Part shown: in pieces, positions 1 through 59,342 of the stretch
Position numbering within the stretch: the first letter of the stretch is position 1
Layout: each line of letters starts with the position of its first letter
Assembly: GCA_963771175.1 (NCBI GenBank)
Contig: CAVYSY010000026.1
Coordinates: forward strand, 192,001 to 256,000
Length of the DNA stretch: 64,000 nt
Direction: 5' to 3'
DNA from: an uncultured delta proteobacterium
GTDB lineage: Bacteria; Myxococcota; Myxococcia; Myxococcales; Myxococcaceae
Notes under the pieces: generated by a model
The model's input: only the letters and a program-made list of their open reading frames with translations
Database searches by the model: none
What the model was told of the DNA's origin: nothing
Made by a program: the position numbers and the translations under genes

Positions 1-106
1 GCCCTGGGCCTGTGAGCACCCTGAGCTGAAGTAGGGCTGAGGAGATTCATTCCCCCGGCCAGTAGAGGCCCACCACTGGGTGCTCAGCTCAAAACGGGGC
101 CATGCG

Positions 107-361
107 CGTCATCATCGGCAGGGCATCACGCCAGGATCTCGATTCCGACCAGGACTCCATCCTGGTCGAAGTCGAGCACCACATCGGGGCCCGTGTAGGA
201 ACCCAGGAGTTCGGCCAGCCTGATCGACTTCGACATCTTGCAGGTCTCACCGGGGTGACTCGGGAGGCGCAAATAGGCCACGTCCTGATCGTCCTCGGAG
301 ACTCGCAGCTCGAAGCGCCCGAGCGTCTTCTTTGAATCCGTCTGCCCCATTACGGCCTCCA
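107..361. repeat. Direct repeat A, copy 1 (copy 2 at 8900-9154)
   Basis: Near-identical sequence at constant offset 8793; covers DUF2283 and the last bases of toxin 1. Confidence 0.9.
126..350 (-). CDS. DUF2283-family protein, probable immunity protein of the upstream toxin
   Basis: DVAYLRL...VVLDFDQDGVLVGIEIL motif; ATG overlaps the toxin stop (TAATG) and follows a GGAGG RBS. Confidence 0.8.
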   Translation of the reverse strand: MGQTDSKKTLGRFELRVSEDDQDVAYLRLPSHPGETCKMSKSIRLAELLGSYTGPDVVLDFDQDGVLVGIEILA

Positions 362-1666
362 CTGCAAAACGGTCTTCAGCTTCAATACACCATCCCTGAG
401 CTGATAGACGACCGCACCACCTCGGCCAAAGCCAGGAACGATGACGCGGTCCGCGTGGGCCGTGTCCCGAATGGTTCCGGGCGGAAGCCCCGACTTCTCG
501 ATCTGTCGGCCGAACTCCTGCAAGGCCGCGCGAGCATCCTGCACGCTTGAGAAACCAGCCCGTTCAACCGCACGTTCCGCCGCGTGCGGCATGTTGCTGT
601 TGACCACCTTGTCAACGTGGATATCCGACGCGCCTCCTGTCAGCTCGCCCGTGACATGACCGTTGCCTCGGCCATCTCCGGCCGACATCGCGACCGCATT
701 GGGGGCAAGGGTGATGGTGACGGCCTCGGCACTCACGGCAACCGTCTCTATCTCCCCCACTGCCGCGAGGCGGAGGCCCACCTGCGTCTCCGCCTGCGCC
801 GCCGCCTGCATCGCACCGGGCAGCGTCGGCACCTTCGCCGCCAACCCCGTCGCCGTGTTGCCGAGCGCCACCGTGGCCAGCATGGCGAACGCACGCGCTG
901 CGTTGCGGCCCATGACCTTCCCGTACCGCTCCCCGGCCTCGCGCAGCTCATTGAACGTGGTGGCCCGATCCGCCGCGTCCATCAGCCGCTTGAAGCCCAC
1001 GACGAGGCCCCAGAAGGTGTCGACGCCCACGTAGGAGATGAGGGTAGCGGTCATCACCGCCGCGAGACCCTTCGAGACCGTCACGTCGGGAATCGAGATG
1101 AGGAGCATGTACGTGGTCCAGGTCCAGAGCACCGCCGCCACCATGGCGTGGGGGTCGGCCATGTCCTTGAACGCCTCCAGCATCTCGTCGAGCACGGCGC
1201 CCTTGGCGAGGGCCAGGGCCAGCGCGAAACGGCCGTCCCCGTTGACGATGGAGCTCTCCGTCAGCAGGCGGAGACAGTCTCCGGGCCTGCCGGTGCGCTC
1301 GCACCAGCGCAGATAGTCGCGCGTCAACTCCACCTCCGCCGCCGATGGTGCCCCCTCCAGATGTTCGTCCGGCCCGAGCGGAGTGACGCGGCGGCTGCGT
1401 GTCTCGTACGTGTACGAACCACTCCGCGCCTCGACCTCGAACAACTTCCGGGCGGCCTCCTGGGGCCGAGCGGAGGGCCGAACCTCCCAGGCACGCTTCG
1501 CCACGGCCTCCTTGAACTCGTCGCCGTTCAACCTCACCGGCTCGGCACCGGAGCGTGGGGTGAAAACGAGAGTGTCGGCCTGGCCCGTGTCCAGGCGCAC
1601 GACCCGAGAAGCGGTAGCACACCCGGCGAGGAGCACCAGCAGCGCCGCCGTCCAGCCCAGCTTCAT
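350..1666 (-). CDS. sitA5: SitA5-like lipoprotein polymorphic toxin, copy 1, with putative RNase C-terminal domain
   Basis: Lipobox LLAGC followed by SRVVRLDTG; YLRWC...GDCL motif; VAMSA junction; C-terminal HAAERAVER...LKTVL; small coupled gene downstream. Confidence 0.75.
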   Translation of the reverse strand: MKLGWTAALLVLLAGCATASRVVRLDTGQADTLVFTPRSGAEPVRLNGDEFKEAVAKRAWEVRPSARPQEAARKLFEVEARSGSYTYETRSRRVTPLGPDEHLEGAPSAAEVELTRDYLRWCERTGRPGDCLRLLTESSIVNGDGRFALALALAKGAVLDEMLEAFKDMADPHAMVAAVLWTWTTYMLLISIPDVTVSKGLAAVMTATLISYVGVDTFWGLVVGFKRLMDAADRATTFNELREAGERYGKVMGRNAARAFAMLATVALGNTATGLAAKVPTLPGAMQAAAQAETQVGLRLAAVGEIETVAVSAEAVTITLAPNAVAMSAGDGRGNGHVTGELTGGASDIHVDKVVNSNMPHAAERAVERAGFSSVQDARAALQEFGRQIEKSGLPPGTIRDTAHADRVIVPGFGRGGAVVYQLRDGVLKLKTVLQWRP

Positions 1667-2172
1667 GGGAATTCCCCCTGATGATGGCCACCCCCTGATG
1701 GGTAGCCAGTCCAACTGTGTACCCTATTGGTCTGACAACTCCCGGTGTTCGCCGCTCTCGGCGGCGTCATTCGAGGGGCTCATCAAGAGCGCCCGTGCTT
1801 CGGCATAAGGACCTTGGCGGTCATCCCCGCTGACGTCCTGGCTGGTCGGCCAGTGCGTCTTCATCCAATCCACCCGAGGAGGAATGCAGATGGAACACGT
1901 CAGCCTCTCCGCTGAGCTGGGGGAAATTCGTTACGCCATCGAGGGCGCCCACTGGATCGCGGACAGCGTCGCCATGGGCGCGGTGCCCGACCCGGATCGG
2001 GTGCACAGCGCGCCCGTCATCATCAGCGCCATCCTGCTGCTGGTGGAGACCAGGCTGCATCAGCTCGGCCGTGTGCTCCGAGGCGAGGAGAACCCGGCGC
2101 ACCTGTTGACGCCGCACAACGTCACCGCCGGGGAGAACGCGGACAGGGATGACGTGGTTCTGCGGCCTTGGG
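681..2172. repeat. Direct repeat B, copy 1 (copy 2 at ~9914-11405)
   Basis: Near-identical toxin N-terminus, intergenic region and divergent ORF at offset ~9233. Confidence 0.9.
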
Positions 2173-2238
2173 ACTGGAGCGCCGCGCCGAGGCCGTCTCC
2201 GTCCGAGAAGAAGGAGACCGAGCAGCCCCGTCCAGTAG
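1890..2238 (+). CDS. Hypothetical protein divergent from the toxin; 3' end uncertain
   Basis: GAGGAGG RBS; MEHVSLSAELGEIRY... is conserved in copy 2 at 11124; the frame stays open to 2756, but an out-of-frame TAG at 2236 followed by a hairpin suggests an earlier true end. Confidence 0.55.
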
Positions 2239-2385
2239 CGGGAACCGAGTCCCCCGTCCGTTGGAGGAGAGCCCTCCCGCCCAGCCCGGCACGCAGGGGG
2301 CGCAACCGCCCCCCACCGGGGAGCCGGGCTGATCGGCTGCGGCCTGTATCGTGCCTGGAGTACCAGGGGAAGGGAGGTGAAGACG

Positions 2386-2499
2386 ATGCTGGGTGCCGTG
2401 AAGAAGCTGGCCGCCTCACCAATCACCCTCCGGGTGGCAGCGGCCATTTTGATCGGACTGGCCGAGCACCTGCGCGAGGTGACGCGGCACGGGCGGTGA
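2386..2499 (+). CDS. 37-aa small hydrophobic peptide, candidate type I toxin
   Basis: Strong SD GGGAGGTGA; MLGAVKKLAASPITLRVAAAILIGLAEHLREVTRHGR; below the ORF-track length cut-off. Confidence 0.5.
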   Translation: MLGAVKKLAASPITLRVAAAILIGLAEHLREVTRHGR

Positions 2500-2519
2500 A
2501 GATGCCCGGAGTTGAAGCA

Positions 2520-2676
2520 CGGTCCCCGTCGCACCAACACCAGCGTGATGCTCCCGGTCTTGGCCGGGTGGTGTGGCGGGGGCCGGTTCGTCTCCACGGG
2601 CTCCGATCCCGGTGGCACCAGCTCCGGTGCAGTTCCACCGCCGGAGGTCCCCGGTCACTTCTCCCGGTGGTCCTCC
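2520..2676 (+). ncRNA. Putative structured RNA or structured 3' UTR
   Basis: 17-bp stem 2520-2536/2569-2585 with three G-U pairs; inner hairpin 2553-2568; hairpin 2622-2646. Confidence 0.45.
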
Positions 2677-2985
2677 AGATTTTTAAGTATCAGGGGCGCC
2701 CTACCCCCTCGTGCGCGAGGAGCTGGAGGGCGAACACTGGGTACGGCCATCAGTAACCCCTGGGCGAAGATCGCCAGGGACCGCGTACCGGGGAGCAGCC
2801 CGCTGGAGAGTCCCCCCGAAAAATCTTGAGAGCCCCCATCCCCCCAGGGGCGCGAAGAAGACCAGGGGGCTTACAGGTGGACCTGCGACAAGGGAACCCC
2901 AGTCCCCCCATCCCCGGGGGTGCTCACCCAGGTTGGATAGGGCTACCGATTAGCGAGTCAGGGCGAAGAGGGCCCGGGAGAGGCG

Positions 2986-3872
2986 TCAAAACGAACCCGA
3001 GGGCGTCACTTCACGAGCCGCAGGCGTCACGCGCAGCTCCTTGGCCTCGGCCGGGTTCTCGGCCTTCACGGTGGCCACCTGGGCGCGGAGCTGGTCGAGG
3101 AGCCCGAGCTGCCGCTGCATGGCGGTCTCCAGCAGCTTGCGGTGGCGCTCCAGCTTCCGCAGGTCCGCGTCTTCCAGCAGCAGCACCTCGGCGGCCAGCC
3201 GTTCGCGCACCGGCGCGAGCGCGCCCTCGTCCTCGGCCAGCTTCGCGGAGAGGGCGCCCTTCACACCTGGGCCGCGTTTCCCAGGTCTCGGTAGACGGCC
3301 GGGGGGATGCGCTCCGTCCTTGAGTTCTCCTGGGCATGTGTTGAGCGCGAAGGCCAGGGGCTCCACCACGACCATCGGCAGGCCCGGCACCTCGCGCAGC
3401 ACGGTCACGGTCTTCTCCACGCCGGTGAGGAAGGCGTCGGTCTGCTCCGCGTCCTTCGGCGGTGGGGAGGCATCCACGAACTCGACGAAGGCGCTCACCG
3501 CCAGCGCCCGGCGGGTGAGGTCGTAGGTCTTGAACTCGTCCGTCTTCTCCAGCTCCTCCTCCAGCCGGGCCCGGATCCGGCCGTTCTCCACCCGGCTCAG
3601 CCGCTCCAGCTTCCAGGCCGTGTCCGCGAGCTGCGCCACGATGGTGGCCTCGGGCAGGGTGGTGGGCGAAGCTGGAGAACCACGAGTCCACGTGCGCCTC
3701 GTACTCGGCGGCATCCTCTCCGGGAAGGAGCAGATGCGTGGCGCTCAACCCGTGGCGGAGGGAATTGAGCGAGGATGTAACCTTCCCCTCGGGGGTCTTC
3801 GGGCCGTTCGAGCGGGCCCCATTGAGCGCGCTGGTGAGCGGCCTGTCGGGCGGAGCGGACGGAGGGGTTCAT
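2986..3872 (-). pseudogene. MGE-associated protein with GPKTPEGK...NSLRHGL motif, frameshifted
   Basis: Joining frames gives ARSNGPKTPEGKVTSSLNSLRHGLSATHLLLPGEDAAEY...EATIVAQLADTAWKLERL. Confidence 0.55.
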
Positions 3873-4072
3873 ACGGGAATTCTCCGGTCTGGCTCGCACA
3901 CTCGTGGGAAGAGGAACGTATAGCCTCAGACGCGGATGGCCCCATGACGGTGCTACTGCACCAATGAGGAAGGCGAGCGAGGGCTGGGCTCCCTGCTCGT
4001 CACTTCCATTGGGCACAGAGAGCCAATCCGACGCCTCTTCGGATTAAGGGTCGAGGGGTCTATCCGGCTCTT

Positions 4073-4493
4073 TGTATGTTGTAAATCCAGGGTCTCTTCT
4101 GGAGCGAGGCCAGGACTAGTTCTTCAAGGGCTTCGTTCCGAAGAACTCCTGGTATCTTGTAGTTTCTGCTCCCTCTCCGAAATCGAGAGAAAGGACCTTC
4201 AGTCCTTTCTCTCTTTCTCTATTCTCCTTATATGATGCAATTACAAGATATAAAGAGATTGAAGAATGAATGAACGAGGACTTGGAATAGAGTCCTCGTT
4301 CTTGGACGAAAGAGAGTAGGGGAATTACAAGATACAATGGCTGCTTGAACCCCTCGCCCTTGAATCCACCGAGGCATTTGGAGGGGTGAAGAAGGCACCT
4401 GGATTACAACATTCAAGATGTTCCCGGAGAGGCGCCCTTGATCTCCACCAAGACCTCGCCGGAAGAAGAAGACGCCCGGAATTACAAGATGCA
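4073..4493. repeat. Array of six 16-bp repeats (consensus GGAATTACAAGATACA), candidate replication origin
   Basis: Copies start at 4073(-), 4151(-), 4237(+), 4321(+), 4400(+), 4478(+); spacings 78/86/84/79/78; AT-rich centre at the orientation switch. Confidence 0.75.
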
Positions 4494-4504
4494 AAGAGTC
4501 CGAG

Positions 4505-5552
4505 TTAGCTGGTGCGTACGGGCTTCTTGTTCCTGAGTTGGAGCCCATAGGCGTCCCTAGCCGCGTCCTCCTCGGTGTACCGACCCGTATCCGGCACCCA
4601 CCTCAACTTGTAAGTGGCTGCCCTCGTGCCAGCCGAGTGGCCCTCGTACAGCTCGAAGACGTGGGAGCCGAAGAATTTCCGTAAGAACTCTGGAGTGCCC
4701 GGAGGCTCCAAGGATGGCCTCTTCGTTCGTTCCGGCGCCGCGCAGCCAATCCGATCTCCACCGAACCAAGTAGCCCTGGGCCTGAGCATTCCATTGCATG
4801 TAGGCGGCCATTCGTTGGAGGCACCTGAAGAGATAGAAGGCGACTATGGGGCCATGCGTCTGGCTTACCCGATGGACCCACTCCATGCTGCTGGGCCCCA
4901 TCTTGGCGAATAGAACTTCGGGATGCTCGTTGAGTAGGTTATTCCTGAAGCCGGCGAGCTGTCCCCTGAGCCCTCGAAGGGTATTACCATCCGTGACGCC
5001 GCTCGCTTGAGCCCATACCTGGAGGAAACTGAAATAATCAGGCACTCCATCTTCGGGGTGGTACTCGACCGCCTTACGTAGCCTCTCGCTTCGCATCAGC
5101 ACCCCGGCCGAGAGATAGAACGGCTTTCCTTTCGGCCATGGAGGACTCCCCAGATGACGAGGGTATCCTCTTCGTTGATACTCGGAGGGGTGGCCCCCTC
5201 GGCAGCTTCGACCAGGTTCGTTCGGAGCTTGTAGAGCGGGGTGCCCCTGCATGGATGCCGAGTGGCTGGGCCATCAACCAGTTCCACTCCGCGTCACCCA
5301 CCTGTCGAGTGAGCCCGAACCGGGTGATGACGCCTCCTGCCAGTACGTGGAGGGGGCGTAGCGACAGGCCAGCACCGAGCTCCTGCACGCTCATCACTCC
5401 TTGGAGCCTTAGGTCCACGTCACCCAGGAACGGAAAGACGTCCAGCACGCTCCCGGTGGGGAGCGGAGTCCTGGGAGGCAGTCACGCTGGTAGTAGGGGA
5501 TTTTCTTGCGTCGGCTGACGCTGGGGATGTCGCATGTCTGTACGTCGCTCAT
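4505..5552 (-). pseudogene. Candidate replication/initiator protein, frameshifted
   Basis: Four overlapping ORF segments from MSDVQT...; C-terminal EGHSAGTRAATYKL resembles a wHTH wing; ends directly beside the repeat array. Confidence 0.4.
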
Positions 5553-5744
5553 GGCTCTGCTCCTTCTTGTGCACGCTGCAACGGGAGCTGGTGGCCCTGC
5601 CCGTGCACTTCTCAATGAATCAACCCGGCGAGCAGGACAGGCACTAATCCAAGGTTGCTCTGCCGTGGACCGTCCTGCCTGACGGGCCCTCGGTAGTGGG
5701 GTCCAGCGGGCCGTCCTAGTGTTTCCCTGTTGAGGAGATGAGCG

Positions 5745-6448
5745 ATGGCGAAGCTCACGGATGAATCGACCATGGAGTCCCTGCCACCAGCCGGGAGCCT
5801 GGAGCCTCCGGGAGGGGAGCCCGGGACGGGCAGCGAGCGTCCCAAACCCCTTCCCCCCATTCCCCTCGGGTACTCGTGCGCGCCACCGCCACCGCCGCTT
5901 CCGGAGTACCTCCGTCCTCCGCTTCCCGTGAGGCGGGGGCGTCCCGATGGATGGGTGTGCAGACGATGCACGGAGTGGTGGGAGTGGCACCCGTACCGGC
6001 CTCCGACAGAGCAGGAACTCGACACGCCCTGCGTTGAATGCCGCAAGGCGATGGAGCCCGAGGAGCGCGCGGTGGAGGTGAACCGGCACCTGCTGGCGAG
6101 GCTCAGCGCGGGATTGGGCTGCCTGGCCCTGCCGACGCCCACTATGTCTCCGGTCCCAGGCCGGCGGCAGCGCACAGACCAGCTGCCGAGCTGTTGTCGA
6201 AGAAGTCGGCTGCGCGTCTCCTGGGCGTGGACCGGGCAACGACCTTGGAGGAGTGGATTGCCACTGGCCGTATCAAGGTGGTGGACCTCGACGGCCGAGT
6301 CCGCATCCCACTGGCGGAGGTCGAGCGCATCTTGAACGAGGGCATCCCGGCTCAAGAGGTGCGCTCCAAGCCCCATCGCTCAGCGAGAGCGGCTGCGTCT
6401 GTGCCATCCGAATCTCCAGGGAATGCGATTCGAAAGTTGAAGGTCTAG
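5745..6448 (+). CDS. Excisionase-like HTH protein with an N-terminal CxxC..CxxC region (frameshift ~6177)
   Basis: LLSKKSAARLLGVDRATTLEEWIATGRIKVVDLDGRVRIPLAEVER is HTH_17-like; CRRC and CVEC lie upstream. Confidence 0.65.
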
Positions 6449-6497
6449 AGTGAGTTATACGCGATCTTCTGGCTACTATCGGTCGATGGGGAGGCTA

Positions 6498-7442
6498 ATG
6501 AGTTCCGACATGAAGGCGGTCTCAATTATTCAGAACGCTCTACCAGGGCTGGAGATTGAACTTCAGCGGGTGCACGAAGCACTACACGAGGTGGAAGAGT
6601 ACGAGTTCAACCGCATTCACGGGAGAGAGCTCGGTCTCATCCAGAAGAAGACTTGGCTAGAGAGATCTTCACGTCCAGAATGAAAAGGCTCTCGCGGCTT
6701 GTGCTCATATGCCTTGATGCTGCTGGCATGGTGGCGACGCGCGATGACTTCCGGGAAACATGGGCCAAATTCACCCTAACGGAAACCGAGTACGTCCACG
6801 AACTCGATGTGCTGCATAGCGAGCCATCCATCTACCTGGGAGACATGATTGACGGCCTACGCCTCATCGCAACTAGAGGCGAAAGCCCAACCGAAAAGGT
6901 GGATCTTCAGCGACTTCAGGATATGCTGCAAGCAACGCCCACGCTAATGCACAGGAGGAATATCGTTCCCCAGCGGGAGCACGACATCCAGTTGGTTATG
7001 GCTGATTATCTGGAGGCATGTTTCCCACGAGAGTTCGTGCCCTCTCCAGGTGTCCCCGGCTTCATCAAGAACTTCAAAGCCGATGCCGGGGATACGGCAT
7101 CTCAAAGCAGCGGTGGAATTCAAGTTCGCCTCTACTCCCACCGAATTGAAGCAAGCAGTATCTGGAATCTTCGAGGACACAGCGGGGTACAAGGGATCCC
7201 TCGATTGGACCCGCTTCTACTCGGTTATTTATATGACTGAACCGTTCGAGTCGCCTGCTCGCTTCCACGCGGATATGAGCCGAGCGGGGGCTCTGAACTG
7301 GACCGTGATCCCGGTTAGTGGAGCGGGCGAAAAGCAGCGGAGGTTCCGGAAAGGGAAGGGTAAGGTAGAGCCAGTCGAGCCGAAGAAGGCCGAGCCAGTC
7401 GAGCAGAAGAAGGCCGAGCCAAGCGAGCCGAAGAAGGAGTAA
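6498..7442 (+). CDS. PD-(D/E)XK nuclease, DpnII/MboI-like REase domain (frameshifts ~6660 and ~7095)
   Basis: EHDIQLVMADYLEACF...FKADAGIRHLKAAVEFK...ED pattern; lower GC; C-terminal 24-bp tandem repeats (EPVEPKKA). Confidence 0.6.
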
Positions 7443-7557
7443 CTCACCGCTGTTAGGAAGCCGGTCATGGGCAAATTACGGGCAACCACCTCTCCCGTTT
7501 TCGACGGTTCCAACCCCCTCTCCAGGGGAGGAGTGGCGGTGCCCCCGGCCTTTTCAC

Positions 7558-7602
7558 GACTGTTAATCACTAGGTCCGAGGTTCGAGTCCTCGTCGGGGA
7601 GC
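7558..7602 (+). mobile_element. att site: 3' half of tRNA-Asn(GTT)
   Basis: Anticodon loop CTGTTAA, perfect T-arm CGAGG-TTCGAGT-CCTCG and acceptor 3' strand; no D-arm or 5' acceptor strand. Confidence 0.85.
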
Positions 7603-7604
7603 AC

Positions 7605-7644
7605 AAGAAGGGCGTCAGACGAAAGTCTGGCGCCCTTTTCTTTT
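7605..7644 (+). terminator. Intrinsic terminator after the tRNA fragment
   Basis: AAGGGCGTCAGAC-GAAA-GTCTGGCGCCCTT followed by TTCTTTT. Confidence 0.8.
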
Positions 7645-7689
7645 GCCCTCTCTGCCCCATCGGCACAACACGGGCAACCCCCTTCGAGC

Positions 7690-8308
7690 GCGGTCCTCAA
7701 GCGCGTCTACTCCTGGTTGCGCAAGGTGAAGCACGTCCTCTCGGTGGCCGAGGACCCGACCTTCGAGCGGCTCACCGTGCCCCAGGCCCGGCCCGAGCAG
7801 TGGAAGCGGACCAAGGTGATTCCCCGGGAGCACTACCTGCTCGCCCGCGAGCACCTCGCGCCTCACTGGCGCGACGGGATGGACGTGCAAGCGGGCACCG
7901 GCTGGCACGTCTCGGGAGCTGGTGCGCTTCGCCAGGATGGGCAGCGTGGAGCCATACCGGGGCGAGGCCGAGGGGATCGCGGGCGTGCTGGTGTGTCCGC
8001 AGACCAAGAGCGGCGAGCCCTTGCGCACTGCCGTGTCCGCCGAGGTGCAGGAGGCCGGGAAGCGGCTGCTGGAGCGCGGCTCGTTCAGCTTCGAGAAGTA
8101 CGGTCTGGCCATCAAGGGAGCCTGCAACGCGGCGGGCATCCCGGCCTTCACGCCGGGACGGTTCCGGCACTCCGTCGCCACCTGGGCCATCGAGAAGGGA
8201 GCGGACCCGGCTTCCGTGGCGGCCTTCCTCAACCACAAGAGCCCGACCACCACGCGGCGCTTCTATGCGACGCACGCTGTCCCGGTGAAGATCCCCACCC
8301 TGGCATAG
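7690..8308 (+). pseudogene. Tyrosine recombinase/integrase, N-terminally truncated, one frameshift ~7915
   Basis: GTGWHVSEL, TK, GRFRHSVATW, LNH and RRFY motifs; no start codon or N-terminal domain. Confidence 0.75.
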
Positions 8309-8503
8309 GACACCGAGAGCGACGGTTTCCTAACCCTTGAAGGGCCCCTCGGTCCTCGGGTGGAGCCGGGTAAACCCCCGAGATTACTGGACGCTGGCGT
8401 TCATCCACGTTCACCCGCGACCGACCGATTACGTACAGATTACGTACTGGTCGAACCGATTCCGGGACTTTCGTCCCGAGTCGTGGCAACCCAGGTTTCA
8501 GGG

Positions 8504-8839
8504 ATGAGTTCCAACAACAGCACGGTCAGTCCAGAACTCCAGCACTACATGCGCTGCACTGCATGTAAGCGGCGCGTAAGCGAGCACGCTCCTGGTAAGT
8601 GCCTCTACCAGGAAACGGCTCTCGCTCCGTTGACACACAACAATTTTTGTTGCGACACCTTCAAGTCCATTGATTCAGAACTGAGCGCTGATCTGCTTGG
8701 TCGGAAGGAAGACGAGCAGCTCTACGTCAAGCGTCACAATGAACTCGTCGCACTGTGCCCGCATCCACCAAATCGAGTGAGCACGGGCGAATACGGCCTG
8801 GAGTTCTGTACCTGCTGTAACTCCGTCATCGAGAGCTAG
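8504..8839 (+). CDS. Small Cys/His-rich hypothetical protein
   Basis: CTAC...H...C, CC, CPH and CTCC; lower GC. Confidence 0.5.
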   Translation: MSSNNSTVSPELQHYMRCTACKRRVSEHAPGKCLYQETALAPLTHNNFCCDTFKSIDSELSADLLGRKEDEQLYVKRHNELVALCPHPPNRVSTGEYGLEFCTCCNSVIES

Positions 8840-8918
8840 ACGGGCTCGATGAACGAGAAGCTGCAACGCACTCCAAGGGAGGCGGCTCGGGCTGCTCGCC
8901 GTCATCGTCGGCAGGGCA

Positions 8919-9143
8919 TCACGCCAGGATCTCGATTCCGACCAGGACTCCATCCTGGTCGAAGTCGAGCACCACATCGGGACCCGTGTACGAGCCCATG
9001 AGTTCGGCCAGCTTGATCGACTTCGACATCTTGCAGGTCTCTCCGGGGTGACTCGGGAGGCGCAAATAGGCGACGTCCTGATCGTCCTCAGAGACTTGCA
9101 GCTCGAAGCGCCCGAGCTTCTTCTTGGAATCCGCCTGCCCCAT
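8919..9143 (-). CDS. DUF2283-family protein, copy 2 (probable orphan immunity)
   Basis: Near-identical to 126-350. Confidence 0.8.
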   Translation of the reverse strand: MGQADSKKKLGRFELQVSEDDQDVAYLRLPSHPGETCKMSKSIKLAELMGSYTGPDVVLDFDQDGVLVGIEILA

Positions 9144-9163
9144 TACGGCCTCCAGGCCATGAA

Positions 9164-9598
9164 CTACGGCGTTTCCCCCAGCTCACGGAGCTTGCCGCGT
9201 GCAATCTCGTTCAGCGGCTCCTTCTGGAGGATGCGACGGTAGAGCCGCACTTTCTCGGCCGGCTCACGTGCCAGCGCCGCCTCCAAGGTGAGAACCTGCA
9301 CGTGCTCCGGGTCCAACGCCTGGGCCATGCCGAGCTGCCGACTCGCTTCGCCGTCTTCTCCCATGAGGAAATAGATGAATCCGAATTCAACCCGTGCGAG
9401 CACATCCTTGGGCATCAGCTCCAAGAGTCGTTCATAGGTGGGCACCGATACCTCGGGCTCAGCGTAGAACTTTCCTGCAAGCACCGGGAGTACAGCGGGA
9501 TCGGAAACGTGACGGAGCGCATCGCGGAAGGCCCGCTCTGCCTCTGCTCCTCCTGTCTCCAGCACTCGCTTCGCCAGATATTCGAAATGGTCCGTCAT
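9164..9598 (-). CDS. TPR-like protein, probable cognate immunity protein of toxin copy 2
   Basis: ATGA overlap with the toxin stop; helical TPR-like repeats (ARVEFGFIYF...ALDP). Confidence 0.65.
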   Translation of the reverse strand: MTDHFEYLAKRVLETGGAEAERAFRDALRHVSDPAVLPVLAGKFYAEPEVSVPTYERLLELMPKDVLARVEFGFIYFLMGEDGEASRQLGMAQALDPEHVQVLTLEAALAREPAEKVRLYRRILQKEPLNEIARGKLRELGETP

Positions 9599-10900
9599 GG
9601 GGGAATGAAAGCGGTGTTGATGGTGATTCGACCGTCCGTGTACTTGAACCAGCGAATGGTCAGGTTCGCAATCCCCCCGAACCTATCATTGATCTTGAGG
9701 GTGCTCTCGAAGATGGACCCTTTGGGGGTTGTGGCCAATGCGCTCACCTTCCCATCGAGCTGGCGGACAGCGTCGATGAGGAACTGTCGTTGCTCTGGCC
9801 ACGTTGGAGCCAGGCGGTCCAGGTTGTGCTTGGGAACGTCTACGTGCGCATCTTTGACCGAGATGTCATCACCGCTCGCCGGGAGCGGAGCGCTCGTGGC
9901 ACCCGACCCCTGAGCCGACATCGCCACGGCGCCCGGAGTAAGTGCGATGGTGACGGCCTCGGCACTCACGGCAACCGTCTCGACCTCCCCCACTGCCGCG
10001 AGGCGGAGGCCCACCTGCGTCTCCGCCTGCGCCGCCGCCTGCATCGCACCGGGCAGCGTCGGCACCTTCGCCGCTAATCCCGTCGCCGTGTTGCCGAGCA
10101 CCACCGTGGCCAGCATGGCGAACGCACGCGCTGCGTTGCGCCCCATGACCTTCCCGTACCGCTCCCCGGCCCCGCGCAGCTCGTTGAACGTGGCGGCCCG
10201 ATCCACCTCGTCCATCAGCCGCTTGAAGCCCACGACGAGGCCCCAGAAGGTGTCGACGCCCACGTAGGAGATGAGGGTGGCGGTCATCACCGCCGCGAGA
10301 CCCTTCGAGACCGTCACGTCGGGAATCGGAGATGAGGAGCATGTACGTGGTCCAGGTCCAGAGAACCGCCGCCACCATGGCGTGGGGGTCGGCCATGTCC
10401 TTGAACGCCTCCAGCATCTCGTCGAGCACGGCGCCCTTGGCAAGGGCCAGGGCCAGGGCGAAACGGCCGTCCCCGTTGACGATGGGGCTCTCCGTCAGCA
10501 GGCGGAGACAGTCTCCGGGCCTGCCGGTGCGCTCGCACCAGCGCAGATAGTCGCGCGTCAACTCCACCTCCGCCGCCGGTGGTGCCCCCTCCAGATGTTC
10601 GTCCGGCCCGAGCGGAGTGACGCGGCGGCTGTGTGTCTCGTACGTGTACGAACCACTCCGCGCCTCGACCTCGAACAACTTCCGGGCGGCCTCCTGGGGC
10701 CGAGCGGAGGGCCGAATCTCCCAGGCACGCTTCGCCACGGCCTCCTTGAACTCGTCGCCGTTCAACTTCACCGGCTCGGCACCGGAGCGTGGGGTGAAAA
10801 CGAGAGTGTCGGCCTGGCCCGTGTCCAGGCGCACGACCCGAGAAGCGGTAGCACACCCGGCGAGGAGCACCAGCAGCGCCGCCGTCCAGCCCAGCTTCAT
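9595..10900 (-). CDS. sitA5: SitA5-like lipoprotein polymorphic toxin, copy 2 (extra base ~10328), with a different C-terminal toxin
   Basis: N-terminus near-identical to copy 1; after VAMSA reads ...AHVDVPKHNL...ITINTAFIPP. Confidence 0.75.
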
Positions 10901-11123
10901 GGGAATTCCCCCTGATGATGGCCACTCCCTGATTGGTAGCCATTCCAACTGTGTACCCTATTGGTCTGACAACGCCCGGTGTCCGCCGCTCTCGGCGGCG
11001 TCAATCGAGGGGCTCATCAAGAGCGCCCGTGCTTCGGCATAAGGACCTTGGCGGTCATCCCCGCTGACGTCCTGGCTGGTTGGCCAGTTCGTCTTCATCC
11101 AACCCACCCGAGGAGGAATCCAG

Positions 11124-11492
11124 ATGGAACACGTCAGCCTCTCCGCCGAGTTGGGGGAGATTCGTTATGCCATCGAGGGCGCCCACTGGATCGCGGACAG
11201 CGTCGCCATGGGCGCGGTGCCCGACCCGGAGCGGACGCACAGCGCGCCCGTCATCATCAGCGCCATCCTGCTGCTGGTGGAGACCAGGCTGCATCAACTC
11301 GGCCGTGTACTTCGAGGCGAGGAGAATCCGGGGCACTTGTTGACGCCGCACAACGCCACCACCCAGGAGGAGGCGGACAAGGATGACGTGGTTCTGCGGG
11401 CCTGGGTCCAGGTCACTTCGGTGCGAGCACCTTCGCGCGGTTCGCCGCGCTCATCGCGTTTGGCCACCCTGCGTAGAACGCGAGGTGCGTGA
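11124..11492 (+). CDS. Hypothetical protein, copy 2; homology ends ~11405 (truncated at the island edge)
   Basis: Near-identical to the ORF at 1890. Confidence 0.55.
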   Translation: MEHVSLSAELGEIRYAIEGAHWIADSVAMGAVPDPERTHSAPVIISAILLLVETRLHQLGRVLRGEENPGHLLTPHNATTQEEADKDDVVLRAWVQVTSVRAPSRGSPRSSRLATLRRTRGA

Positions 11493-11736
11493 TCATCTCG
11501 ACCAGCTCCTCCTGCGTGACGCCGTTCGCGAGGGCCTTCGGGAAGTGGAAGTCCATCTGCTCGGTCTTGCCCATCGCGATGAGGGCCGCGCAGGTGATGA
11601 GACTCCGGTCGCGCTTGCTGAGCTGCGGTCGCTCCCAGACATCGGCAAAGAGGACTTCATCGGTGAGCTCCACGAGCTTCGGCGCGAAGTCCCCGAGTGC
11701 CTGCTGGGCAGCGGTGGGTTCGGACTTGGTACTCAT
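11413..11736 (-). CDS. Carboxymuconolactone decarboxylase family protein
   Basis: LFADVWERPQLSKRDRSLIT...HLAFYAGWP. Confidence 0.9.
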   Translation of the reverse strand: MSTKSEPTAAQQALGDFAPKLVELTDEVLFADVWERPQLSKRDRSLITCAALIAMGKTEQMDFHFPKALANGVTQEELVEMITHLAFYAGWPNAMSAANRAKVLAPK

Positions 11737-11782
11737 GGTGTCTGCTCCTTCTCGGGCGGCAGGTTGCACATCTGACGCGGCT

Positions 11783-12292
11783 TCACGGCGCCTCCTCGGC
11801 CAGCTCGAAGCGGACCACAAAGCCGCCGCGGGCTCCCGCCAGCTTCTCGACCCCCGACTCGATGTGGCCCAGCTTGACGAGCCCGCTCGAGTATCCGAAG
11901 TCGCGATAGAAGATCGCCAGGTTTCCCCACGGGGCGTAGTACGTGAGATCGCCGATCTCTGGGTCCACGCCCGGCGGCGTGCCGCTGGTCGAAAGCCGCC
12001 TCGGCAAGTCGCTCACCTTCTCCGTCCCCGCGTAGTCGCGCAGCGTGAGGTTGAGCGGCAGCAGCGAGACGAAGTCACGCGTCGCGGCGTTGTCGTCCAA
12101 CGTGGCGGTCAAGACCGTGTCTTCCGTGATCAGTCGGAGCTTCATGGTGGCAACCTGTCGGGGTGAACTGTCGGTATCGGTCGAAGGCGACGGTGGGCTC
12201 TCGGCATCCGCCGCACGAGACGGCCCAGTACAGTCGCAGCTCGCCAGGGCGAGGACAGCGAGCACGAGCTTGATGGTCGAACGCCTACGCAT
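11783..12292 (-). CDS. Cyclophilin-like fold protein with signal or lipoprotein leader
   Basis: ATLDDNAATRDFVSLLPL...EK...GDLTYYAPWGNLAIFY. Confidence 0.8.
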   Translation of the reverse strand: MRRRSTIKLVLAVLALASCDCTGPSRAADAESPPSPSTDTDSSPRQVATMKLRLITEDTVLTATLDDNAATRDFVSLLPLNLTLRDYAGTEKVSDLPRRLSTSGTPPGVDPEIGDLTYYAPWGNLAIFYRDFGYSSGLVKLGHIESGVEKLAGARGGFVVRFELAEEAP

Positions 12293-12309: not shown

Positions 12310-13327
12310 TCACGGCCGCAGGAGCGTCTTGATGGCGCGCCTTTCGTCCATCGCGCGGTAGCCCTCGGCGACCTGGTCGAGGGGCAGCGTGAGGTCGAAG
12401 ACCTTTCCGGGTTCGACCTTCCGGTTCCAGACGAGGTCGATGAGGTTCGGCAGGTAGCGGCGCACCGGCGCGGGGCCGCCGTGCAGATGGACGTGCGTGA
12501 AGAACAGGCTCTGCCCGTCGAGGGTGACGCCATGCGGCACGCCGACGTAGCTCACGTAGCCCCCGGGGCGCGTGGCGCCGATCGCCTGCTGCATCGACTC
12601 CTGCGTGCCCACGCACTCGAGCACCGCGTCGGCGCCCACGCCCCTGGTGAGGTCTTTGATGCGCGCGACGCCCTCGGCGCCACGCTCGGTCACGATGTCC
12701 GTCGCGCCGTACTCGCGCGCGAGCCTCTGCCGGGAGGCGTGCCGGCTCATCGCGATGATGCGCTCGGCGCCCATCTGCTTTGCGGCGAGCACGGCGAGGA
12801 GGCCGACCGCTCCGTCGCCCACGACGGTGACGGTCATCCCGGGTTTCACGTTGGCCGCGTCGGCCGCGAACCAGCCGGTCCCGAACACATCGGACGCAGC
12901 CAGCAGGCTCGGCACGAGGTCGTCCGGTGGGACCTCGGGCGTCGCGACGAGCGTCCCGTCGGCGAGCGGGACGCGAAGCCTGGGGGCCTGCGCGCCGACG
13001 ACGGACTCTCGGTGCTGACACGACGTCTGGTAGCCCGCTTTGCAGTGAGGGCAGGTGTTGTCGGAAGCGAAGAAGGAGCCGATGACGAACTGGCCCGGTT
13101 TGACCGAGGTGACGGCGCGTGCCGACCTCCTCGACGATGCCGCAGTACTCGTGGCCCATCGGCGTCGGCTCGGTCACCTCCTGTACGCCTCGATAGGGCC
13201 AGAGGTCCGAGCCGCAGACGCACGTGGCCGAGATCCGGATGACGGCGTCCGTCGGCGTGAGGATCTTCGGGTCGGCTCGCTCTTCGAAACGTACGTCACC
13301 GGGCCTGTAGAGAACGGTGGCTCGCAT
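12310..13327 (-). CDS. Zinc-dependent alcohol dehydrogenase family protein (frameshift ~13115)
   Basis: CVCGSDLW, GHE and GDGAVG motifs. Confidence 0.85.
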
Positions 13328-13466: not shown

Positions 13467-14396
13467 GTGAACACGACCCTGTTTCCCCAGCTCCAAGCCT
13501 TCCTCGCCGTCGCTCGGTCGCGGAGCTTCAGCGGCGCCGCACGCGAGCTCGGTGTCTCGCGCTCGGCGGTGAGCCAAAGCGTGCGCCAGCTCGAGGAGGA
13601 GCTCCGAGTGACCCTCGTTGCACGCACGACGCGCAGCGTGTCCCTCACCGATGCGGGAAGGCGCCTCTTGGAGTCTGCGGGCCCGGCCGTCGCACAGGTG
13701 CGCGCGGCACTCACGGAGGTCACCGCGAAACCTGGGGAGGTGGTCGGCCGCGTGCGGTTGACGGTGCCCCGCTCAGCGTTCCACTTCGTGATCGAGCCCG
13801 TCTTGCCGAAGTTCCGAGAGCGCCATCCTCGCATCGAGGTCGAGCTTGTCTTCGAAGATCGACGGGTGGACATCGTCGGTGAGGGCTACGACGCGGGCAT
13901 TCGCCTGAGTGAGTTCGTCGAGCGCGACATGGTGAGCGTCCGACTCACCGACTCCTTTCGGTTCATCGTCATCGGTGCCCCCGACTACCTCGACAAGCAC
14001 GGGACTCCAGAGCGCCCCGAAGATCTCCTTCATCATGAGTGCCTGACGTTTCGCTCGGACACCACGGGCTCGCTGTATGCGTGGGAGTTCGAACGGGGCC
14101 GCCGGACGTGGCGCGTTCCGGTTCGAGGAAGCCTTGTCGTCAATGACGGTCTTTTCTGCACGGCATGGGCTGAGCAGGGGCTCGGCCTGGCGTACGCGAT
14201 GGAACCTCTGGTCAACGAGCAGCTCCGCACGGGAAGTCTTCGGCGCGTGCTCGAGCCGTACGCTGCGGCTGTTCCCGGCTTCTTTCTCTACTATCCCAGT
14301 CGAGCCCAGAGCTCCGCCCCGCTCCGGCTCTTCGTCGAGACGGTTCGTGAGCTGACCGGGAAGCCGCCGTCGGCGAAGACGCGGCCTCAGCCTTGA
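13467..14396 (+). CDS. LysR-family transcriptional regulator
   Basis: FLAVARSRSFSGAARELGVSRSAVSQ HTH; RTTRSVSLT. Confidence 0.95.
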   Translation: MNTTLFPQLQAFLAVARSRSFSGAARELGVSRSAVSQSVRQLEEELRVTLVARTTRSVSLTDAGRRLLESAGPAVAQVRAALTEVTAKPGEVVGRVRLTVPRSAFHFVIEPVLPKFRERHPRIEVELVFEDRRVDIVGEGYDAGIRLSEFVERDMVSVRLTDSFRFIVIGAPDYLDKHGTPERPEDLLHHECLTFRSDTTGSLYAWEFERGRRTWRVPVRGSLVVNDGLFCTAWAEQGLGLAYAMEPLVNEQLRTGSLRRVLEPYAAAVPGFFLYYPSRAQSSAPLRLFVETVRELTGKPPSAKTRPQP

Positions 14397-59122: not shown

Positions 59123-59342
59123 TCATCCCTCCGCGGCAAAACAAACGTTTTGTTTGAAATGTTCTGGGCGATAAGCCATGTGACAAAGAATTTTGAATTT
59201 GCTTGACGCCCTGTGTTGTCCGCGCCTATTGCCCTCGCCCTCAAATGCCTGATTGTCATGAAAAATAGGCATTGCAAGGTTTTTCCCAGAGCCTCGCGAC
59301 GACGAGGCTTTCGCGCCCGGAGGGCGCATGGAGAGGAGCAAC

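Follow-up and report, generated by a model that had tools for sequence, protein, structure and literature searches.

A half-site array beside a rare ~350-aa protein gene as a candidate replication origin of tRNA-integrating myxobacterial islands

The array and its neighbours

In the 64-kb stretch of myxobacterial DNA analysed here (the window), a gene of a rare family of ~350-aa proteins is followed directly past its stop codon by about 420 bp of AT-rich DNA carrying seven 16-bp half-sites, and a gene of a 290-aa family lies on the other side. The array is present only once in the whole 9.8-Mb assembly. Its features are listed below by window coordinates and strand, with scores in bits from a position matrix (PWM) built from the sites of all homologous loci (consensus TTATATCTTGTAATTC).

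3028..3873, minus: gene of the 290-aa all-helical family, the neighbour on the array's other side; one apparent frameshift near 3665
4072..4087, plus: half-site 7, outermost, on the arm beside the 290-like gene; TTGTATGTTGTAAATC; 24.4 bits, 2 mismatches
4150..4165, plus: half-site 6; TGGTATCTTGTAGTTT; 20.2 bits, 3 mismatches
4185..4213, no strand: hairpin or palindrome by the centre, 12-bp perfect stem, 5-nt loop (inverted repeat I17)
4214..4273, no strand: AT-rich core, candidate DNA unwinding element; 27% GC, least stable 60-mer of the 64-kb window
4228..4253, no strand: central pair of overlapping, opposed half-sites (4228–4243 and 4238–4253); 20.1 and 25.6 bits
4272..4301, no strand: second hairpin or palindrome by the centre, 11-bp perfect stem, 8-nt loop (inverted repeat I21)
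4322..4337, minus: half-site 3; TTGTATCTTGTAATTC; 26.6 bits, exact match
4401..4416, minus: half-site 2; TTGAATGTTGTAATCC; 20.8 bits, repeat family D1
4479..4494, minus: half-site 1, 11 bp past the stop codon of the ~350-aa-family gene; TTGCATCTTGTAATTC; 23.0 bits, 1 mismatch
4505..5552, minus: ~350-aa-family gene, encoding the candidate array-binding protein; three frames in this assembly
5697..6146, plus: island HTH protein, N-terminal and middle part; the C-terminal HTH_17 part, present in the intact homologue, was not found

A first-pass annotation of this DNA had described six repeat copies, two reverse (starting at 4073 and 4151) and four forward (4237, 4321, 4400 and 4478), spaced by 78, 86, 84, 79 and 78 bp. 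All six lie at those places, and a seventh half-site had been missed. Searching the 64 kb with GGAATTACAAGATACA at up to three mismatches gave five matches against 0.05 expected, a number reached in none of 100 shuffles; the sixth copy (4400–4415) has four mismatches and was recovered as a member of repeat family D1. The repeats are thus real and far beyond chance. The PWM finds seven matches at 9 bits or more in the window, every one within the array; it is circular for its own training sites, and outside the arrays it gave only one match in 140 kb of other loci.

The additional half-site, at 4228–4243, overlaps the one at 4238–4253 by 6 bp to form a central palindrome, and what had been read as an orientation switch is therefore itself a site pair. 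Half-sites at 4072, 4150 and 4228 share one orientation and those at 4238, 4322, 4401 and 4479 the opposite one, so that the outlying half-sites, three on one arm and two on the other at steps of 78–86 bp, all aim inward at the central pair. Composition flips there too: on the gene strand purines account for about 30% of the letters before the centre and about 80% beyond it, which makes the whole 420 bp one large imperfect dyad. The core of the palindrome reads TGCAATTACA in the window compared with TGTAATTACA in relatives. Metagenome contigs about 98% identical to the window have a T at 4238, giving the perfect TGTAATTACA core, and an A at 4491, restoring the consensus in half-site 1. One of them differs by one letter at 4440, within the array; given this difference and an indel-prone assembly, the array spacings are accurate to about ±1.

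The array had been noted as AT-rich, and it is: GC content falls to 44–46% per 300 nt, compared with about 68%. Its core 60-mer, at a dG of −67.8 against a window mean of −97.4 (sd 5.2), lies 5.7 standard deviations off the mean. The second-lowest GC spot, 33% in 60 nt, is at 59140–59200. Two hairpins flank the core on opposite sides, the 12-bp one 25 bp and the 11-bp one 34 bp from the centre; the former is terminator-like on the plus strand and the latter on the minus strand, both facing the centre. These are two of four inverted repeats first reported in the spacers, and both were found again and have counterparts at the same place in relatives. The other two, an 8-bp repeat at 4119–4147 and an imperfect one near 4350–4390, are visible in the sequence and may be chance, as neither has a counterpart in the nearest relative.

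Perfect Watson–Crick stems of 7–12 bp occur on either side of the centre in eight of nine arrays, at a distance of 21–49 bp, or up to 71 bp in one locus (G129). Seven of the eight other arrays scanned have a hairpin of different sequence at the position equivalent to 4185–4213. Because hairpin sequences vary between clades with perfect pairing kept, it is the pairing itself that is conserved. We found no DnaA box at up to one mismatch in any of seven arrays, and no sigma-70-like promoter was scored in the array, with the proviso that myxobacterial promoters may differ.

In this assembly the ~350-aa-family gene is split into three frames, and the first-pass annotation had regarded it as needing repair. 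Intact homologues measure 346–355 aa. Contigs from three metagenome runs of one study, about 98% identical to window positions 3899–5600, are one or two letters shorter at no fewer than eight points in the gene and encode an intact 346-aa form (P0002). In the same assembly (81.7% completeness in only 58 contigs), the essential gene rpoB, which lies outside the window, likewise falls into three reading frames within 1.7 kb (G000:C25:96973-98669). The split rpoB and the completeness figure mark the assembly as indel-prone and call for caution with apparent pseudogenes anywhere in this genome. Because the 98%-identical contigs carry the intact form and rpoB is also split, the frameshifts in 4505–5552 are probably an assembly artefact and the gene is probably intact in reality. 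A reading of the locus as a decayed pseudogene relic was dropped once the assembly itself proved indel-prone. The window copy of the island HTH protein lacks the C-terminal HTH_17 part and no island-type integrase was found beside it; these may be real losses.

Several further observations concern the surroundings. At the start of the 290-like gene, window positions 3826–3899, the 98%-identical metagenome contigs have 69 other letters instead. ARAGORN predicts an 83-nt tRNA-Glu(ttc) at 7520–7602 (plus), where Rfam reports no tRNA at E ≤ 1, and it is followed by a sub-threshold ctRNA_p42d-like match at 7606–7646 (plus; 37 bits against a cut-off of 50) and a weak integrase-like frame at 7660–8296 (plus).

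Conservation of the array and its link to the ~350-aa gene

Equivalent arrays had been proposed as a check on the locus, and they exist. The same architecture lies directly 3' of the ~350-aa-family gene in 11 of the 12 loci with downstream sequence and in seven of eight clades. The 12 loci are the window; G170 and G105, 96% identical to each other; the close kin G010, G008, G011 and G003; and G122, G129, G436, L041 and G045, the last having a near-identical metagenome copy, L040. In 11 of the 12, the first half-site begins 11–35 bp past the stop codon, and the shared layout runs from inward half-sites through a hairpin, an AT-rich palindrome and a second hairpin to opposed half-sites. In G003 (locus L019) an insertion cuts the array after the third half-site, and the frame of the inserted coding sequence may be that of an IS66-family transposase. 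The G045/L040 clade has the gene and no array in the 1.5 kb of downstream sequence available.

At the matrix threshold used, relatives have one to three sites on one arm and one or two on the other; G122 has a single outlying site on its second arm, and the sites of L041 are weak. The regular ~80-bp spacing described earlier holds in three clades, with steps of 78–86 bp in the window, 78–81 bp in G170 and 73–80 bp in G010, G008 and G011. Elsewhere it does not: steps are 68–105 bp in G122, 69–113 bp in G436 and 17–20 bp in G129. Given these differences between clades, the ~80-bp period is a clade feature and not a family rule. The sites themselves are better preserved than their surroundings, with 62% identical columns among three representatives compared with 28% of other array columns. 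The PWM detected no motif copy at the ~350-aa gene's own promoter and no second array in the loci examined. L041 additionally carries, at 6010–6140, four direct repeats of GAT(C/T)GTGATCC(TGTTTG) set 31–46 bp apart between the outer half-sites and the AT-rich centre; this locus encodes a primase–P-loop protein, and the repeats may be a second iteron set.

On the far side of the array the 290-like gene runs co-directionally in four clades, and in G436 and L041 it converges on the array; G129 has it at another place, with an HTH gene next after the array. No gene starts behind the array in these last three loci. The 290-aa family is much commoner than its neighbour, occurring in 46 of 208 genomes of the bacterial family, in most of which the ~350-aa gene and array are absent. 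Its model is an all-helical bundle for which Foldseek returned only generic coiled-coil-like rows, and its members (L010 7607–8479 and relatives) conserve an N-terminal motif, N-G-x4-GP-x-T-x2-GK-x2-S-x2-N-x3-HG.

Loci with both genes all show (8 of 8) an AT dip to 29–39% GC with two to six TGTAA-type words. By comparison, 22 loci with a 290-like gene and no ~350-aa gene have minimum GC contents of 46–56% and zero to two such words, and none of the 22 has an AT dip or motif cluster within 1.5 kb. The accompanying integrases and HTH proteins belong to different families in different loci, and the DNA motif stays constant. Since the neighbours vary, the 290-only loci have no array, and the integrase and HTH families differ, we tie the array to the ~350-aa gene. 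The earlier suggestion that the neighbouring protein binds the array thus gains a genomic link, seen in 11 of 12 loci, to the gene at 4505–5552; the binding itself is a step that we infer.

Host islands and the ~350-aa protein family

The array belongs to small integrated islands whose ends are tRNA-sequence direct repeats. Two complete genomes define them: an 11.1-kb island in G008 bounded by a 45-bp repeat (ends at 14021 and 25133) and a 9.7-kb island in G122 bounded by a 31-bp repeat (ends at 13030 and 22723). In both, the array is intact about 3 kb inside the island ends. An attP or arm site is thereby ruled out, the array being internal and the ends being the tRNA repeats; that different integrase families accompany the same motif also speaks against attP.

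The island backbone consists of an integrase, an HTH protein, the ~350-aa protein, the array and the 290-aa protein. The cargo is variable: besides genes of unassigned family it includes DUF932, a candidate defence gene, and an AHH nuclease accompanied by an immunity protein. In L010 the AHH-nuclease protein matches the AHH domain of Pfam, and the next gene is an Imm11/SUFU immunity gene; two copies of a gene on the minus strand of the window, 617–1666 and 9889–10900, resemble this toxin at 46% and 43–53% identity. The G010 island holds a gene matching PDC-M30A in PADLOC with a GMT-like wHTH domain (L046 12012–13172, plus), from which we conclude that the islands carry variable defence or competition cargo. 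The two most distant relatives have replication genes within the module. In L041, 1.6 kb from the ~350-aa gene, an 886-aa protein joins a DnaG-type primase to a P-loop domain, and G436 has a CHC2-zinc-finger DnaG primase together with a decayed homologue of the L041 P-loop part. The Myxococcaceae islands contain no recognisable primase or helicase.

The ~350-aa family is rare: at E ≤ 0.001, a search of 1.84 billion clusters gave 56 representatives. It occurs in 9 of 208 genomes of the bacterial family (single protein query) and in 10 of 401 genomes sampled phylum-wide (profile search), and an 8-member alignment search for related loci added three metagenome loci. A DNA search with array and gene gave no DNA-level match in 60 relatives' genomes, so a protein search was needed. 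No match to the family came from the plasmid and phage collections searched by tblastn or from the viral contigs covered by a pattern scan. Pfam, PHROGs and PADLOC returned no matches for either the ~350-aa or the 290-aa protein, and a PDB sequence search with a 35-member profile of the ~350-aa family gave nothing below E 0.1.

The AlphaFold model of the ~350-aa protein (pLDDT 85) is a helical protein that ends in an alpha/beta part. Within this C-terminal part, residues 233–323 align with the winged helix of CooA (Z 5.2, rmsd 2.6, 74 residues) and also with CRP- and Fur-type winged-helix domains; 5.2 is the best Z, a weak match in a range where chance arrangements are common. Foldseek found no match to the model at E ≤ 0.001, and its Cre recombinase rows (E 0.7–3, TM 0.12–0.15) were judged noise. 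No Rep-type fold, Rep_3 included, was among the listed fold matches, which leaves room for a distant relationship. A protein atlas placed the protein in unnamed clusters only, named clusters scoring below 0.9; integrase N-terminal SAM-like clusters reached 0.86–0.88, under the atlas's lead threshold. Two homodimer predictions scored 0.00, which carries no weight for or against a dimer.

Among 35 family members the only invariant residues are G, W, R and I, and the best-conserved stretch is WRSxWLRG...AIPG. No catalytic residues are conserved in these members, whether Tyr, His or a Lys set (Tyr315 is Phe in 3 of the 35), and the family has no NTPase motif or domain. This absence of enzyme-like conserved residues suits a non-catalytic, DNA-binding protein.

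Function of the array and known systems

Taken together, the comparisons suggest that the array is a cis-acting protein-binding site of ~10–11-kb tRNA-integrating myxobacterial islands, and most likely their vegetative origin, a ranking we give because the layout agrees in every point with the published description of SaPI origins. To this reading, in which the array is a replication origin built on SaPI/P4 logic and bound by the ~350-aa protein, we give a probability of about 0.5. In its favour are the array's tie to the gene, its placement inside the island, a core that is the least stable DNA in the window, and the primase genes in two relatives. The first-pass annotation had already proposed an origin from the opposed iterons and the AT-rich core, a proposal that fits everything testable here; replication itself, the opening of the DNA and the identity of the binder are the parts that we infer.

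On this proposal, the ~350-aa protein, encoded immediately upstream, would bind the 16-bp half-sites through its C-terminal winged-helix-like part. Two copies would sit head to head on the central palindrome and further copies would fill the outlying, centre-pointing sites. Protein–protein contacts could then wrap or fold the array DNA, about 420 bp long, straining the 27%-GC core that lies between the hairpins until it opens. A helicase and a primase would enter at this point, supplied by the host in the Myxococcaceae islands; in the deeper-branching relatives, entry might be by the island's own DnaG-type primase–NTPase. The hairpins, which read as inward-facing terminators, may shield the core from transcription.

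Several observations count against an origin. An NTPase domain is missing from the ~350-aa protein, and no resemblance to known initiators was detected; seven arrays contain no DnaA box at up to one mismatch, and the PWM found no motif copy at the gene's promoter, unlike in many iteron plasmids. The Myxococcaceae islands have no recognisable primase or helicase. The flanking genes of G436 and L041 converge on the array, an arrangement more typical of a terminus or a neutral intergenic site. The family was also not found in the plasmid, phage and viral-contig collections searched, and the G045/L040 clade has the gene with no array in the 1.5 kb available. A bolder version of the origin reading, tentative and somewhat improbable as it stands, is that the ~350-aa family represents a new class of origin-binding initiator free of enzyme domains. 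It would assemble on the central palindrome and on inward-facing sites ~80 bp, or about one superhelical turn, apart, and would wrap about 420 bp of DNA to open an insulated AT-rich core.

Two other roles for a bound array seem to us improbable, and about equally so. The array could be a centromere-like partition or stabilisation site with the ~350-aa protein as its centromere-binding protein; bending at the AT-rich centre would then pair the arm sites that lie roughly 80 and 160 bp to either side. At bent centromeres, P1 parS for example, two arms are brought together in this way, and the adjoining gene for a non-enzymatic, DNA-binding-like protein, the mirror symmetry with matched distances on both arms, and the lack of an initiator-like fold among the listed matches would all suit such a site. 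However, the scan of island ORFs recognised no NTPase of the ParA, ParM or TubZ type, integrated 10-kb islands would need partition only if they also replicate, and neither the primase genes nearby nor the extremely unstable core would be explained. Alternatively, the ~350-aa or the HTH protein could act as a repressor or activator on a promoter in the AT-rich centre, serving the 290-aa gene or an unannotated transcript. In a genome of 68% GC a promoter is likely to lie in AT-rich DNA, and the array does lie upstream of a co-directional 290-like gene in four clades. Against such an operator, no gene starts behind the array in G436 and L041, where the genes converge, or in G129, where the 290-like gene is elsewhere; 22 loci have the 290-like gene alone and no array; seven sites across 420 bp exceed usual operator needs; and the array scored zero sigma-70-like promoters, allowing that those of myxobacteria may differ.

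Slightly less probable again is a site for transfer, packaging or recombination, such as an oriT, a helper-phage pac- or cos-like site or a recombinase resolution-type site. These are mobile elements, and inverted repeats by an AT-rich centre are also known at such sites, but no relaxase, coupling protein or terminase was recognised in the islands and the array lies away from their ends. One could also cite for it the Cre rows and the integrase SAM-like clusters at 0.86–0.88, both within noise by the tools' own notes; against it, no catalytic set of Tyr, His or Lys is conserved in the ~350-aa protein. We consider it very unlikely that transcripts of the region are processed into structured RNAs of ~80 nt, an alternative raised by the first-pass annotation that found no support here. 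The regular ~80-bp units of three clades and the two stable hairpins would fit it, but the two halves hold the units in opposite orientations, which would put both sense and antisense copies on a single transcript, and spacing across the family runs from 17 to 113 bp. In addition, Rfam has no match at E ≤ 1 in positions 1–12000, RNAalifold pairs only left with right sites with an unsupportive covariation term of +0.68, both hairpins face inward like terminators, and spacer hairpins beyond the two central ones are not conserved.

If the origin reading is correct, small tRNA-integrated myxobacterial islands would have an extrachromosomal replicative phase like that of PICIs and P4, and the islands in question carry toxin–immunity and candidate defence cargo. 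The initiator family would then be a new one, and the origin layout, with its wide spacing, an unusual one. Should the array instead be a partition or control site, it would still offer a defined protein–DNA recognition system with a 16-bp motif and natural spacing variants to exploit. Myxobacteria are major natural-product producers and are short of replicating vectors, for which reason a replicating gene-plus-site module would be a useful tool; under the new-initiator reading, gene and array would form a self-contained replicon native to myxobacteria. The plasmid pMF1 is reported to be the sole endogenous autonomously replicating plasmid found in myxobacteria (PMC6091211), and a later paper counts only two myxobacterial organisms known to harbour a plasmid (PMC11705834). 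Judged by titles and abstracts, the literature on myxobacterial integrative elements, iterons and pMF1 does not describe this module.

Among known systems, the iteron plasmids (Rep_3-type RepA, RepE, pi, TrfA) use a non-enzymatic winged-helix initiator with host helicase and primase; in these plasmids the iterons form a series of direct repeats, spaced by about 22 bp, to one side of the unwinding element, and DnaA boxes as well as inverted half-iterons at the rep promoter are usual. The proposed non-enzymatic initiator and the repeated sites by an AT-rich element recall this design, whereas the sites here are opposed and 68–113 bp apart (17–20 bp in one locus), with no DnaA box and no motif copy found at the promoter. 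P4 is an ~11-kb tRNA-integrating element whose ori and crr contain repeated octamers in both orientations near an AT-rich stretch, bound by the primase–helicase alpha through a C-terminal winged-helix domain; its sites are short and clustered, and the second set (crr) lies kilobases away. The islands share with P4 the sites in both orientations near AT-rich DNA and a tRNA-integrated element of similar size, and differ in that the loci examined have no second array and the ~350-aa protein has no NTPase domain. The actinomycete elements pSAM2, SLP1 and pMEA300 have rolling-circle or prim-pol Rep proteins and FtsK-like transfer genes, none of which was recognised here. The likeness to them is that of a tRNA-integrated element in a high-GC soil bacterium, theirs being 10–17 kb long and equipped with int, xis and a replication module (PMC2440964).

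The closest parallel in layout is with SaPI origins, which are described as iterons immediately downstream of rep, two or more on either side of an AT-rich centre and opposed in direction (PMC9371898). The array likewise follows a candidate initiator gene directly and has an AT-rich centre with opposed sites on each side (in the window, three, the central pair and two), and where SaPI recognition is by a C-terminal winged helix, the ~350-aa model has its weak winged-helix-like match (PMC9371898). The islands, too, are small, with an integrase and variable cargo. The SaPI Rep, on the other hand, is a helicase that loads itself, and a primase is often its neighbour or fusion partner, while the ~350-aa protein has no NTPase domain; Pfam, PDB and the listed structure matches gave no clear relationship between the two by sequence or fold. 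SaPI iterons are 5–6 nt long and close-packed, in contrast to 16-bp sites 68–113 bp apart in most loci, and here the centre is a palindromic site pair between two hairpins. The array would thus work like origins of a known kind, in which opposed iterons surround an unwinding element. Its candidate initiator sets it apart from the SaPI and P4 kinds and probably from Rep_3, and it differs further in the size and spacing of its sites, in its central palindrome and in its inward-facing hairpins.
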